64,000 nt of DNA from a virus (IMGVR_UViG_3300046171_000193:1-64000); one strand, 5' to 3'; counted from the first letter of the stretch, positions 796-10,542 are shown. Program-made: numbers and translations. The notes: a model not told the origin generated them from the sequence alone.

Positions 796-1214
796 ACTGT
801 TATATCTTTCACTCTGTGAGGTTGTTGTAAAATCCAATCAATTACTTCACAACAGTATTCTATACTCATTTTTTTATCTTTTACTAATTCTACTCTTGGA
901 CTATCAAAATATCCAAATCGTACAATTGTAGTTGCAACTCCTTGATAAAATAATTGTTCGTTAGCTTTGTCGAGAGCAGCTTTTTGCACTTGATATATGT
1001 GTGGTTCGTATTTGCTTTGATCAGGTGAATTAGATCCTATGTTTATAATTCTTTTATCCATAGCTGCAGCTTTATATAGAAGATCTACTTGATTGAATCC
1101 ATCGTGCTTACAGTTAATAAACACATCGCAATGATCTAGTGAACCGATATTGCCGTATTTCCAAGCAAGCGCTTTACCCAGACCTCGCCTGGTTCCTGTT
1201 ATATAGTAATTCAT
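786..1214 (-). CDS. short-chain dehydrogenase/reductase (compact)
   Basis: ITGTRRGLG Rossmann motif, IINIGS, YxxxK (YQVQK). Confidence 0.8.
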   Translation of the reverse strand: MNYYITGTRRGLGKALAWKYGNIGSLDHCDVFINCKHDGFNQVDLLYKAAAMDKRIINIGSNSPDQSKYEPHIYQVQKAALDKANEQLFYQGVATTIVRFGYFDSPRVELVKDKKMSIEYCCEVIDWILQQPHRVKDITVCP

Positions 1215-1776
1215 AACCCCATTTCTTTTCCATGCATTGCCAGCATTTTCCACACTCTTTCTCTGTAGATGCAATACAACTCATTGTATCTGACAAATCT
1301 ATTTTTTCCTGTCGAGCTAGATCGATTATATGATACTTATATAGATGTAGAAAAGGAAGTCTTAGTTTATATTTTTCATGGTCTATATACCATGGCCTTT
1401 TTGGTCTATCTGGCGTATCAAATTCAGGAAAGTATGCTAAAGGTGGAGTATGATTTGTTCCAGCATATATCTCGTCATAGTCGTATTCTTCAATTATTTG
1501 ATAGATAGAATGCTCTATTCTTGTAGCAGAATCTGTTGTCAGCTCGTTAACTATATTTACTTTTTTACCGGTTAGTCGTTCTACTCTTTTATAGTTATCA
1601 AAGCCGTCTTGTCTATTAACATTAAAAACATCTACATCAGATACTAGATTTAATAAATTAAACAATACGAAACTATCTATGCCTCCACTCATAATAATAG
1701 CACAACGACCTTTAGGATTTATTTCTACAACCCTTTGATCCCATTTTGGACCGCATATGTACGTCATTGTTTTCAT
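1174..1776 (-). CDS. QueC-like PP-loop ATPase
   Basis: SGGIDS PP-loop; C-terminal SC-x6-CGKCWQC Zn motif. Confidence 0.75.
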   Translation of the reverse strand: MKTMTYICGPKWDQRVVEINPKGRCAIIMSGGIDSFVLFNLLNLVSDVDVFNVNRQDGFDNYKRVERLTGKKVNIVNELTTDSATRIEHSIYQIIEEYDYDEIYAGTNHTPPLAYFPEFDTPDRPKRPWYIDHEKYKLRLPFLHLYKYHIIDLARQEKIDLSDTMSCIASTEKECGKCWQCMEKKWGYELLYNRNQARSG

Positions 1777-2325: not shown

Positions 2326-2402
2326 GGTTCCTTAGCTCAGCTGGATAGAGCAACTGCCTTCTAAGCAGTAGGTCATAGGTTCGAATCCTATAGGGACCGC
2401 CA
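2326..2402 (+). tRNA. tRNA-Arg (anticodon UCU)
   Basis: Acceptor GGTTCCT/AGGGACC, D-arm AGCTCAGCTGGATAGAGC, anticodon loop CTTCTAA, GGTTCGAATCC, encoded CCA. Confidence 0.97.
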
Positions 2403-3107: not shown

Positions 3108-3269
3108 ATGTTATATATTAAAGACATCATGGCGCTACTAAACTGCGATATAGAAAAAGCAAATAAAGTATTCGATAATATGGTACTTGATTTTTCACAA
3201 GCAAGTACAATGCAATTTAATAATGAAGTATTAATGGTTAACGAATTAATGGAACAAGGAGTTATATAA
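3108..3269 (+). CDS. small hypothetical protein (53 aa, MLYIKDIMALLNC...)
   Basis: AAGGA RBS; stop overlaps next start (TAATG); not in the ORF track. Confidence 0.65.
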   Translation: MLYIKDIMALLNCDIEKANKVFDNMVLDFSQASTMQFNNEVLMVNELMEQGVI

Positions 3270-4220
3270 TGTCACATGAAGTAGAAACAATGGCTTACGC
3301 AGGTGAGCTTCCATGGCACGGTCTTGGAACAGAAGTTAGCAATGAATTAACACCATTGCAAATGATGCAAAAAGCTGGAGTCGACTGGGAAGTCGAACAG
3401 CAAAAAATCGTTACCGAATCTGGTCTCGAAATCAATGACAAGGTTGCTCTTGTCAGAACCTCAGACAATACTTTGCTTGACGTAACTGGCAAAGATTGGA
3501 AGCCAGTACAGAACGAAGAAGCATTTACTTTCTTCTCAGAGTTTGTTGCTGCTGGTGATATGGAAATGCATACAGCAGGATCTTTGAAAGAAGGTCGTAA
3601 TGTGTGGGCTTTGGCAAAAGTCAAAGAGTCTTTTGATGTGTTCGGTGAAGATCGTGTTGACTCATATCTGCTCTTCTCAAATCCACATCAGTATGGAAAA
3701 GCAGTAGACGTACGGTTTACTCCAATTCGTGTTGTATGTAATAACACATTGACTTTCTCTTTACAGTCTGCTTCAAAGAATTCTGTCAAAGTTGGTCACC
3801 GTACAGCATTCGATGCTGATACTGTAAAAGAAACTCTTGGTCTTGCTTCTGAAAAGTTTGCTAAGTACAAAGAGATGGCTCAGTTCTTAGGCTCTCGTAA
3901 AGTTACCGCAGAGGCTCTTATCCAATATTACAACGATGTGTTTCCAACTACATCTCGTAAAGAAGAGAAAACTCCGGTTGTAGGTTTATGACGACATGTC
4001 AAAAGCTGCGAAGATGTGTTACGATGCTCTTGAGGTTCAGCCAGGTGCACAGTTTGCCGCAGGTACATGGTGGCAAGCATTCAACAGTGTAACTTACTAC
4101 ACTGATCACTTACAAGGACGAAACTCTGAGAATCGTCTTCACAATCAGTGGTTTGGTTACAATCAAGCCAAAAAAGTAACTGCGGCGGAGAAAGCAGTGG
4201 CATACGCCACTGCTGCCTAA
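3269..4220 (+). pseudogene. DUF932-family phage protein split by a +1 frameshift near 3985
   Basis: MAYAGELPWHG, TAGSL, TPIRVVCNNTL and GTWWQAFNSVT lie in two frames; removing one T from GGTTTATGAC restores ...VVGYDDMSK... Confidence 0.75.
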
Positions 4221-4223
4221 ATC

Positions 4224-4697
4224 ATGTCGAACCAAAAACTTTGGAAGAAGGTAAAGAAAATGGATCTAGGAAATCCCGTAATTACCGCTCTCGTTGGACT
4301 GGTAATTTTTTATATTGGCCTCAAAACTTTCTCAGGAGGTATGAAGTCGATGGGTAATATGGACCACCTACAATTCTTTTTAGGTAATCCAATATACATG
4401 TTTATCGGCGGAATAGTCATGACTCTCTTATGGCAATCGTCATCACTATCAACCACTGCGATCATTGCATTAGTTGCTTCAGGAGCGTTACCGCTGCCAG
4501 CTGCAGTTGCTGCAGTTCTCGGAGCTAACATTGGAACGACTGGAACCATATGGCTTGCAGGATTCTTTGTATCTGATGGTTGGCCAAAAGGTGATACCTT
4601 ACGAATAGCTATGGCACACACTGGAATGAATCTGACAATGGCATTAATGTTACTGCCTTTTGTTGGACATATAGCAAAGTTTCTCGGTAAGTTCTAG
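4224..4697 (+). CDS. half-size Na+/phosphate cotransporter family protein
   Basis: Signatures LWQSSS and GANIGTT; several TM helices; alternative start at 4260. Confidence 0.85.
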   Translation: MSNQKLWKKVKKMDLGNPVITALVGLVIFYIGLKTFSGGMKSMGNMDHLQFFLGNPIYMFIGGIVMTLLWQSSSLSTTAIIALVASGALPLPAAVAAVLGANIGTTGTIWLAGFFVSDGWPKGDTLRIAMAHTGMNLTMALMLLPFVGHIAKFLGKF

Positions 4698-4722: not shown

Positions 4723-4747
4723 AATGCGGCTTCGGTCGCATTTTTTT
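4723..4747 (+). terminator. intrinsic terminator with cUUCGg loop
   Basis: AATGCGGC-TTCG-GTCGCATT followed by a T-run. Confidence 0.85.
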
Positions 4748-4748
4748 A

Positions 4749-4777
4749 TGTACTTCTTCTTGAAAGTATGGTACAAA
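4749..4777 (+). promoter_or_regulatory. early-type promoter TGTACT-N17-TACAAA
   Basis: Motif variant; followed by AAGGAGA RBS. Confidence 0.7.
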
Positions 4778-4805
4778 GGTTATATCAGTCAAAAAGGAGA
4801 AATAT

Positions 4806-5021
4806 ATGACTTATACACTTATTAACCACACTAACTACAACCAACCACTATCTTTTAATACTATTCCTCAAATCATTAAACATATCAAATCACTTAAACT
4901 TCCATCTACTACCGATTTTCTAATCTTCCCTCCTCATAACCCTCAAACATCTATCTTTTTCAATCTAACACTTTCACAACTAATCGACTTATACAATAAC
5001 CATCCAAACGAATTATTATAA
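4806..5021 (+). CDS. hypothetical 71-aa protein encoded by an almost G-free mRNA
   Basis: Own promoter and strong RBS; only 4 G in 216 nt. Confidence 0.7.
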   Translation: MTYTLINHTNYNQPLSFNTIPQIIKHIKSLKLPSTTDFLIFPPHNPQTSIFFNLTLSQLIDLYNNHPNELL

Positions 5022-5044
5022 TATAATTCTAACACATTTTTTTA

Positions 5045-5073
5045 TGTACAAACCCTTTAAAATGTGTTAGAAT
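5045..5073 (+). promoter_or_regulatory. early-type promoter TGTACA-N17-TAGAAT
   Basis: Motif match. Confidence 0.8.
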
Positions 5074-5096
5074 TGTATTATGAAAAGGAGAATAGC

Positions 5097-9412: not shown

Positions 9413-10542
9413 TCAATAGATTTAGTGAGTATTTAGTAGAGGAAGAACGTATTGGTTATTTGGTCTTTGGCCGAATGAATCCTCCTACTATTGGACATGG
9501 TAAATTATTAGATAAGCTTGCAGCAACAGCTGGTCGGGCACCTTATCGCATCTATCTGTCGCAGTCAAATGATGAAAAAGATAATCCGCTTACGTATTCT
9601 GAGAAGGTTAAGTTCGCACGTAAAATGTTTCCAAGGCATGCAAGATCTATTATTATTGATAAAAAAGTTATAACTCCCTTTCATGCATTGTCAGCAATGT
9701 ATAACGCAGGATTTAAAAAGGTTGTCTTGGTTGCTGGCTCAGATCGTGTAAAAGAATACGATTTGCGTCTCAACAAATATAATGGCAAAAAGGGTTCTCA
9801 CGGCTTTTATAATTTTGAAAACGGCGTAAAGATAGTTAGTGCAGGTCAAAGGGATCCTGATGGTAAAGGCGCAGAAGGTGCATCTGGTACAAAACAAAGA
9901 GGCTATGCAAAGAGTAATGATTTTACAGGATTTTCTCAAGGGCTAAGTAAAGCCATGTCAAATCCTGATGCGAAGAAGATGTTCAATGCTGTACGCAATG
10001 GTATGGGATTAAAAGAAGAACATGAATTTAAAAGACATATTCAACTTAAGTCCGTATCAGAAACTAGAGAAGCTTTTGTTAAAGGCGAACTCTTCGAACT
10101 CGGAGAGCAAGTCATTATCAAGAAAACATCTGAGGTTGGTAAAATCACACTCATCGGATCGAACTACGTCATTGTAGAAACTTCTGATAAGACTACGAGA
10201 CAGTGGTTAGATGCTGTTGAGAAGATTGTAGAAGAAGCAAAGTACGATTATGGAACTGATGCTTCAGTAAAATATATGAAAAAGACCACGCCTGGTCAAA
10301 ACGAGGACAGTACTCCTCAGGACTCTGATATTAAAGATCGTAAAGGATCACAACCAAAAGATTATCATAGAGGCCTGAAGAAAGCAACAAAAGTAGCAAG
10401 AGACCGCCACTTTAAGAAACACGGTAAAAAAGCAGATAACGATTCTAGTGCATATAAGCCAGCACCAGGTGACAAAAAGAATAAAGGTAAAACTAAACAA
10501 TCGACTTGGACTACTAAGTTTAAGCAGATGTATGGGGATTAA
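9409..10542 (+). CDS. HxGH nucleotidyltransferase (cytidylyltransferase/NMNAT superfamily) with C-terminal SH3-like and basic modules
   Basis: FGRMNPPTIGH, DNPL, VAGSDR, SAGQRDPD, SGTKQR. Confidence 0.85.
   Translation: MINRFSEYLVEEERIGYLVFGRMNPPTIGHGKLLDKLAATAGRAPYRIYLSQSNDEKDNPLTYSEKVKFARKMFPRHARSIIIDKKVITPFHALSAMYNAGFKKVVLVAGSDRVKEYDLRLNKYNGKKGSHGFYNFENGVKIVSAGQRDPDGKGAEGASGTKQRGYAKSNDFTGFSQGLSKAMSNPDAKKMFNAVRNGMGLKEEHEFKRHIQLKSVSETREAFVKGELFELGEQVIIKKTSEVGKITLIGSNYVIVETSDKTTRQWLDAVEKIVEEAKYDYGTDASVKYMKKTTPGQNEDSTPQDSDIKDRKGSQPKDYHRGLKKATKVARDRHFKKHGKKADNDSSAYKPAPGDKKNKGKTKQSTWTTKFKQMYGD

Follow-up and report, generated by a model that had tools for sequence, protein, structure and literature searches.

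Why would a phage carry a protein-coding gene from which one of the four nucleotides is almost missing? The question is raised by a short open reading frame (ORF) in the first 64,000 nucleotides (positions 1-64000, here called the window) of the IMG/VR virus IMGVR_UViG_3300046171_000193, a record of 151,681 bp with an estimated completeness of 83%. An earlier note on the window had pointed out that this ORF, which we refer to as the G-poor gene, contains hardly any guanine, and had offered several reasons for it. The phage itself is uncultured. The best relatives of its baseplate wedge protein gp6 are found in Phage C48C1 (42%), in the Melnitz phages of Methylophilales (OM43; 34%), and in cyanophages and pelagiphages (~31%), a relatedness by which it is a marine T4-like myovirus. 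The contigs that carry homologues of the G-poor gene come from marine metagenomes, including TARA.

Guanine depletion in the gene and its homologues

A recount confirmed the four guanines in 216 nt that had been reported for the ORF, at 4808 (in the ATG), 4914 (in GAT), 4986 (in GAC) and 5010 (in GAA). The two G-free runs that the note had singled out, 4809-4913 (105 nt) and 4915-4985 (71 nt), proved to be the longest two, whether the window or all 151,681 bp of the genome are considered; the next in the genome reaches 52 nt. When the genome was scanned in 216-nt segments, the minimum G count was 3 at this locus and no other place had fewer than 17 (mean 43.3, sd 7.3), and the same scan found no comparable hole for A, C or T. 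G-avoidance extends 24 nt beyond the stop, up to 5045, and the GC skew is -0.9 across ~240 bp. The gene is indeed C-rich, its 61 C placing it in the top 0.14% of segments, and the neighbouring early genes with the same type of promoter are normal in G, in line with the ordinary content that had been claimed for neighbouring genes.

The depletion reaches into the protein, which lacks Gly, Ala, Val, Arg, Trp, Cys and internal Met, in agreement with the earlier reading. Its amino acids are precisely those for which G-free codons exist, and residues that need a G-containing codon make up 4% of it versus 42% in ordinary proteins of the phage. Nor does synonymous choice admit guanine: of the 38 codons that offer a choice between G and no G, none carries G (7.1 expected), so that the claimed absence of synonymous G holds. 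G-to-A hypermutation or a bisulfite-like artefact was ruled out as the source, as A+G is depleted, not conserved. Nor is it an artefact of assembly, which had been named as a possible refutation, since the gene recurs in >30 contigs from JGI, ENA/TARA, Logan and IMG/VR.

Homologues were found in 6 + 2 clusters of the protein collections and at 18 further loci in IMG/VR, and the 21 distinct homologous sequences share 48-94% protein identity with the protein of the window; blastn and tblastn gave no homologue in cultured phages. Only the annotated frame is open in all 21 distinct nucleotide sequences, with 1-15 stops in each of the other five frames, and a composition-preserving shuffle keeps a 70-codon frame open in only 2.9% of cases. 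A gene on the opposite strand was ruled out, all three antisense frames being full of stops. In a codon alignment of seven distinct sequences, the variable columns at codon positions 1, 2 and 3 number 29, 17 and 53, the sole indel is one whole codon, in frame, and pairwise dN/dS is 0.05-0.32 at a synonymous divergence of up to pS 0.73. This pattern of conservation shows ORF 4806-5021 to be a real, translated 71-residue protein gene under purifying selection. A confident AlphaFold2 model built from 9 input sequences only has the order beta-beta-alpha-beta-beta-alpha (pLDDT 84, pTM 0.72). The protein has a pI of 6.9 and is thus not acidic. It has no family in PHROGs or Pfam, and no significant fold match was obtained in the PDB by Foldseek, in BFVD or among protein-atlas features, a wide structural search giving a best Z of 4.4.

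If composition itself were selected, homologues should keep both the ORF and the avoidance of G at synonymous sites, and this is what they do: within the dN/dS range just given, guanine is kept out even near saturation. Every homologue has 1-7 G in ~210 nt. A sliding-window check, also proposed by the note, identified the homologue as the sole G-poor place of each related locus, with 0-3 G per 150-200 nt versus at least 11 at the next-lowest place. The guanines that are left belong to the ATG, to the first base of Asp and Glu codons and, rarely, to GCA, GTA or an internal ATG. Among ~40 Leu, Ser, Pro, Thr, Gln and Lys codons, the G-containing synonymous ones number 0-2 per sequence (occasionally ACG, TTG or CTG) versus ~7 expected from the phage's own codon usage, and the probability of finding none is 1e-4 to 6e-4 per sequence, in clades with pS of 0.6-0.73. 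AGY is never used for Ser, and a final G is almost absent from Leu, Pro, Thr, Gln and Lys codons. Beyond the stop, the 3´ flanks of the 10 types in the family together hold 5 G in ~263 nt (counted by eye), compared with 16.9% G over the 25 nt that follow the stops of other genes.

The central proposal of the note, that selection acts on nucleotide composition itself, is thus borne out by a conserved ORF that avoids G at synonymous sites. Comparison of the homologues shows that selection excludes guanine from the whole transcript save the Shine-Dalgarno (SD) sequence, the AUG and a few Asp and Glu (rarely Ala, Val or Met) codons. Because the purge is near-total despite the reduced amino-acid alphabet with which it is paid for, it points to a cost attached to each G (each C of the template) and not to a bulk property.

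The cassette and its genomic contexts

The G-poor gene had been described as sitting in its own cassette with an early promoter and a strong ribosome binding site. The terminator, the GGAG and the promoter of the next cassette were all found (Table 1). The gene's own promoter scored below the threshold of the consensus scan and is proposed from a recurring motif, (A/G)TGTAC-17-TG.TA...A/T, which follows terminators at genome positions 1803, 5037, 23714 and 115380 and also lies ahead of the homologues. GGAG or GGA occurs at the same spot in all homologues, and the arrangement of hairpin, T run and ATGTAC lies upstream of most of them.

Table 1. Features in and around the guanine-poor cassette (window coordinates).
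Feature	Position	Strand	Basis and remarks
Terminator-like hairpin with UUCG loop and T run	4723-4748	+	Terminator scan; stem 4723-4742, 8 pairs; ends the upstream Na/Pi-cotransporter-like gene; left cassette junction
Early-promoter-like site	4749-4777	+	Recurring motif; TGTACT 4749-4754, 17-nt spacer ending TGG, TACAAA 4772-4777
Shine-Dalgarno GGAG	4796-4799	+	Sequence; 6 nt before the ATG
G-poor gene	4806-5021	+	71 codons, TAA stop, 216 nt; A80 T71 C61 G4
Imperfect inverted repeat	5018-5081	+	Reverse-strand self-match; right cassette junction; spans the next promoter
G-free 3´ flank	5022-5045	+	From the stop to the promoter of the next cassette
Promoter of the next cassette	5045-5073	+	Promoter scan; TGTACA 5045-5050, 17 nt, TG.TAGAAT ending 5073

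The gene occurs in at least four genomic contexts. It follows a DUF932 gene and small ORFs (loci L009-L014 and L029-L034), or a half-size Na/Pi-cotransporter-like gene within a nucleotide-metabolism cluster (L015-L017 and L028); elsewhere it lies near Lipase_3, HD_4 and WYL_2 genes (L007 and L022-L024) or beside WYL_2 (L018 and L019). In the window, the G-poor gene and the same Na/Pi gene stand just after the DUF932 gene. The pair formed by these two genes recurs in a different context at L015-L017 and L028, with 87% protein identity, and its members appear to have travelled together as a unit. The Na/Pi-cotransporter-like gene of the window (4224-4697, + strand; 157 aa, PF02690) is half-size with one repeat and is directly upstream of the G-poor gene. 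At L021, the copy of the G-poor gene is truncated after residue 42 ('LIF'), exactly at the terminator-promoter junction.

These arrangements, compared between loci, show that the G-poor gene rides a mobile terminator-plus-early-promoter cassette resembling the PeSL cassettes of T4-type phages (PMC2839356, PMC4122927). The likeness consists of a terminator hairpin and an early promoter that flank a small accessory gene in varied contexts, and it extends to the points of exchange, given the cut of the L021 copy at the junction. The likeness is one of architecture, the level at which the comparison was made, and PeSLs would account for the mobility of the gene but not for its composition.

Probable cytosine modification in the phage

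A guanine in the message is a cytosine in the transcribed strand, and one of the options in the note was a C-free template that stays readable despite modified cytosine. An ORF at genome positions 132,777-133,457 matches the dCMP hydroxymethylase of T4 (PDB 1B49) over its full length with an E value of 5.5e-75, far above any thymidylate synthase; the same query recovers T4 gp42 as a control, and the phage homologue is ~55-58% identical to the T4 protein. Beside this gp42-type gene are a dCMP deaminase gene, a gene of 326 residues of unknown function and a PLP-like gene. The surrounding region at genome positions 130,600-138,600 (L046) also holds genes for a KDO-8-P-synthase-like protein, a CMP-sugar cytidylyltransferase, a cupin, a UDP-glucose dehydrogenase and an NAD-epimerase, a gene set suggesting that hydroxymethylcytosine is decorated in an unusual way, with a sugar or otherwise. 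Given the gp42-type enzyme and the modification genes downstream of it, the cytosines of the phage are probably replaced by 5-hydroxymethylcytosine derivatives, and the transcribed strand of the G-poor gene would then be almost free of the modified base. A homologue of the MazG-type (PRA-PH) pyrophosphatase was found by tblastn at 128,432-128,839, and a search of the genome for the dGTP_diPhyd_N family gave no match, with its control silent too.

Does the G-poor gene keep company with cytosine modification elsewhere? All four assessable lineages of the family carry a gp42-like gene, namely this genome, the L015-L017/L028 lineage, the L030 record and the L044 record (which has a 56%-identity homologue); in the L015-L017/L028 lineage the distance is three genes, with the G-poor gene upstream. 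Eight of 10 fragmentary contigs with a G-poor gene have no gp42, but these are only 12-44% complete and too short to tell. C48C1 and Melnitz, the nearest complete relatives, have neither the G-poor gene nor a gp42-like gene. In the same part of the genome, the 338-aa gene found after the PLP-like gene in L015 has a homologue that matches in two overlapping pieces (93% and 68% identity) at 135,799-136,816 and may here be frameshifted or rearranged.

Guanine modification was considered as well. In the genome (~83% complete), no TGT, QueD or FolE of the 7-deazaguanine pathway was found, although the TGT model, PF01702, also misses known DpdA3 enzymes. It gives no match in Campylobacter phage CP220 (FN667788) or Cellulophaga phage phiST (KC821604), both published with DpdA3 and fully replaced guanine, so that the negative TGT search does not exclude enzymes of the DpdA3 type. 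A 199-aa ORF at window positions 1174-1776 (- strand) has a match to QueC that is confined to the C-terminal 58 positions of the latter; because QueD, FolE and TGT were not found, it probably stands outside the 7-deazaguanine pathway.

Possible causes of the depletion and known parallels

What, then, might make a guanine costly? The explanation that we tentatively prefer, while rating it below an even chance, is that the G-poor gene is a first responder that can be read while modified cytosines are under attack or are slowing the polymerase. Each modified C in the template would be a liability. A host enzyme that targets modified cytosine, such as a DNA glycosylase of the Brig1 type, which creates abasic sites, would block RNA polymerase there; alternatively, a bulky adduct on the modified C would slow the host polymerase. 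With a G-free message, the template would present ~8 C between transcription start and stop, versus ~50 in an ordinary gene of the same length. A G-poor immediate-early gene could thus still be read quickly and to its end at a time when transcription of the rest of the genome fails, and its protein may act as a first responder or in counter-defence. Excision of modified cytosines by glycosylases, which convert glucosyl-hmC to abasic sites, has been proposed to impede phage transcription (PMC11078745), and bacterial RNA polymerase is inhibited in vitro by bulky groups in the major groove of template DNA (PMC4838386).

Template protection agrees with a composition that is an extreme and unique outlier in the genome and at every related locus, with the association with gp42-like genes in the four assessable lineages and their joint absence from C48C1 and Melnitz, and with an early-promoter cassette and a mobility that are typical of accessory or counter-defence genes. 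The option of the C-free template thus has the support of its genomic context, namely the gp42 gene and its co-occurrence in four lineages, yet falls short of proof. The case for hydroxymethylcytosine comes from genes only, and the co-occurrence is among related phages, for which shared ancestry could account. Ordinary G content is seen in other early genes that share the promoter type, so a modified template C is no general obstacle. The non-transcribed strand has 61 C, and with them many targets for a glycosylase, while the promoter, SD sequence and terminator all retain template C. The protein, with no recognisable fold or family, is not acidic, unlike the known DNA mimics that inhibit glycosylases. 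Nor is there a three-letter gene in T4 (hmC), CP220 or phiST when these are scanned for G- or C-poor windows, the 111-nt G-free run of CP220 being an AT-rich intergenic spacer; guanine is completely replaced by 7-deazaguanine in CP220 and phiST (bioRxiv 10.1101/2023.04.13.536721). Such a gene is therefore no general requirement. A broader proposal, which we consider less likely than not, is that base-replacing phages keep "three-letter" first-responder genes, with a transcribed strand that lacks the replaced base and stays readable under host attack or stalling, as a general and hitherto undescribed counter-defence design; the G-poor gene, in a phage that probably modifies cytosine, would then be one instance of it.

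The avoidance of G in the 3´ flank is more directly predicted by a cause at the level of the RNA. Each G in the message could be cleaved or modified by a G-dependent activity, whether an endoribonuclease that requires G (RNase T1-like or other) from host or phage, or an ADP-ribosyltransferase that acts on mRNA at GA; it could also be a point of stalling or poisoning under scarce GTP or a GTP analogue. The G-poor gene would then be the counterpart of an ACA-less, MazF-proof mRNA. This account, which we regard as possible though on balance unlikely, draws on the same evidence of composition and selection; the near-total purge fits a cost per site, and guanine is avoided through the 3´ flank to the terminator or next SD and kept only where it is functional. 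It is weakened by the failure to find a candidate nuclease, although the control of the RegB-type search was silent as well as the search itself, by the surviving guanines, which are mostly in GA contexts and leave a GA-directed attack possible, and by the G and GTP that the 5´ UTR and translation still require; it would also leave the gp42 link to ancestry only. Two versions put forward in the note fare worse. A shortage of GTP is a weak proposal for the reasons of 5´ UTR and translation just given, and our search of the published literature found no GTP-depleting defence. Attack of the DarT1 type fits poorly with a transcribed strand that is rich in G (61 G). Purging G also removes G-C and G-U pairs, internal SD-like sites and internal starts, and the message could be structure-free and optimised for translation, with constant access for ribosomes in a burst of expression at the onset of infection, possibly in cold water or with the help of S1. 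The ORF is effectively unstructured, with an MFE of -1.1 kcal/mol versus a mean of -42.5 (sd 10.3) in other 216-nt windows, and the SD is strong. At two-fold pyrimidine-ending codons C is used over T in 55% of cases versus 28 +/- 11% (rank 5 of 193 genes), and this preference of NNC over NNT is the usual mark of translational selection; guanine-free viral mRNAs form initiation complexes through ribosomal protein S1 (bioRxiv 10.1101/2021.10.13.464283). A bulk property of this kind, however, would not require a near-total purge and a 12-14-letter amino-acid alphabet, less G near the start would yield most of the gain, and only one gene per genome is so built, which makes this an improbable cause.

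A C-rich, G-free RNA might instead serve as a rut-like loader that recruits Rho when free of ribosomes, coupling the gene or its downstream region to translation or titrating Rho. The RNA is unstructured, with 28% C, 2% G and 34 YC dinucleotides (genome mean 15.6), but it is translated from a strong SD, and its downstream context varies between an intrinsic terminator at some loci and a directly following gene at others. C at four-fold sites is not enriched either (4% versus a genome mean of 10%), which is why the C-richness is a product of the amino acids that remain after G exclusion and of a translational-optimisation signature, not of selection for C. We therefore consider a Rho loader very unlikely. 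Still less credible, and disfavoured here, is an odd protein composition or a local mutation bias, such as transcription-linked damage, without selection on the nucleotide. Most of the depletion does lie in amino-acid choice, as the contrast between 42% and 4% of G-requiring residues indicates; yet the amino acids are exactly those encodable without G, the AGY codons of Ser are never used, G-ending codons are near absent, neighbouring early genes are normal, and the pattern persists over saturated synonymous divergence with purifying selection. Least probable of all is an untranslated, strand-asymmetric DNA element such as an R-loop origin, the last of the options in the note, or an artefact of assembly. 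The GC skew would suit such an element, but the conserved frame, the codon periodicity, a dN/dS far below 1 and the in-frame indel refute it as the sole explanation, and many independent assemblies carry the gene. Purine-poor RNA disfavours stable R-loops, and the RNA of the ORF is 39% purine.

Several known systems resemble the G-poor gene in part. In ACA-less (MazF-resistant) mRNAs and in the avoidance of restriction sites by phages, an element is likewise missing beyond chance and is kept out at synonymous sites, and an ACA-less gene can be expressed under an attack that needs the missing element. Here a whole nucleotide is avoided and not a motif of 3-6 nt, a reduced amino-acid alphabet is forced, and the putative attack may have the template DNA, not the RNA, as its target. 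Rut sites are C-rich, G-poor, unstructured RNAs of >80 nt with many YC dinucleotides, but the RNA described here is a translated ORF under purifying selection in which C is not enriched at four-fold sites. The guanine-free omega leader of tobacco mosaic virus and the synthetic G-less cassette of transcription assays are unstructured or can be transcribed without GTP. These are non-coding or artificial, whereas in our case the coding sequence is G-free and the leader has a normal GGAG. The cytosine-modification system of T4 (gp42, the gp56 dCTPase and glucosyltransferases, with Brig1 as a defence; PMC11078745) is matched by a close gp42 homologue, the modification in our phage being proposed from genes, but T4 has no G-poor gene. 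The earlier note knew of no description of such a gene, and a search of the literature for natural guanine-free or G-less genes yielded only synthetic cassettes and a remark on guanine-free mRNAs of plant viruses. To our knowledge, no natural protein gene held by selection to a three-nucleotide alphabet has been described.

The gene is thus of interest as a natural protein gene that selection holds to three nucleotides and to ~12-14 amino acids. It illustrates that, even where selection on one nucleotide overrides most of protein sequence space, a protein with a predicted fold can result. If the template strand is what is protected, the gene would add a new layer to the arms race over DNA hypermodification, and its composition would provide a simple signature by which first-responder or counter-defence genes might be recognised in sequence. 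A cause at the level of the RNA would predict that mRNA in marine bacteria is subject to a G-directed attack that has yet to be discovered.

Some minor observations were made around the locus. A tRNA-Arg (anticodon TCT) at 2326-2402 (+ strand) is the sole tRNA of the window. The DUF932/phrog_1221 gene upstream is broken by a stop into ORFs of 240 aa (3269-3991) and 74 aa (3996-4220), both on the + strand; in the relatives L009-L014 it is a single 316-aa gene with 94% identity, and the stop is due to a nonsense mutation or to an error of sequencing. Just downstream of the homologue in L036, L037 and L042, at ~10,240-10,300, the next gene opens with ~40 G-free nt and is mildly G-poor, with 13 G over 150 nt.
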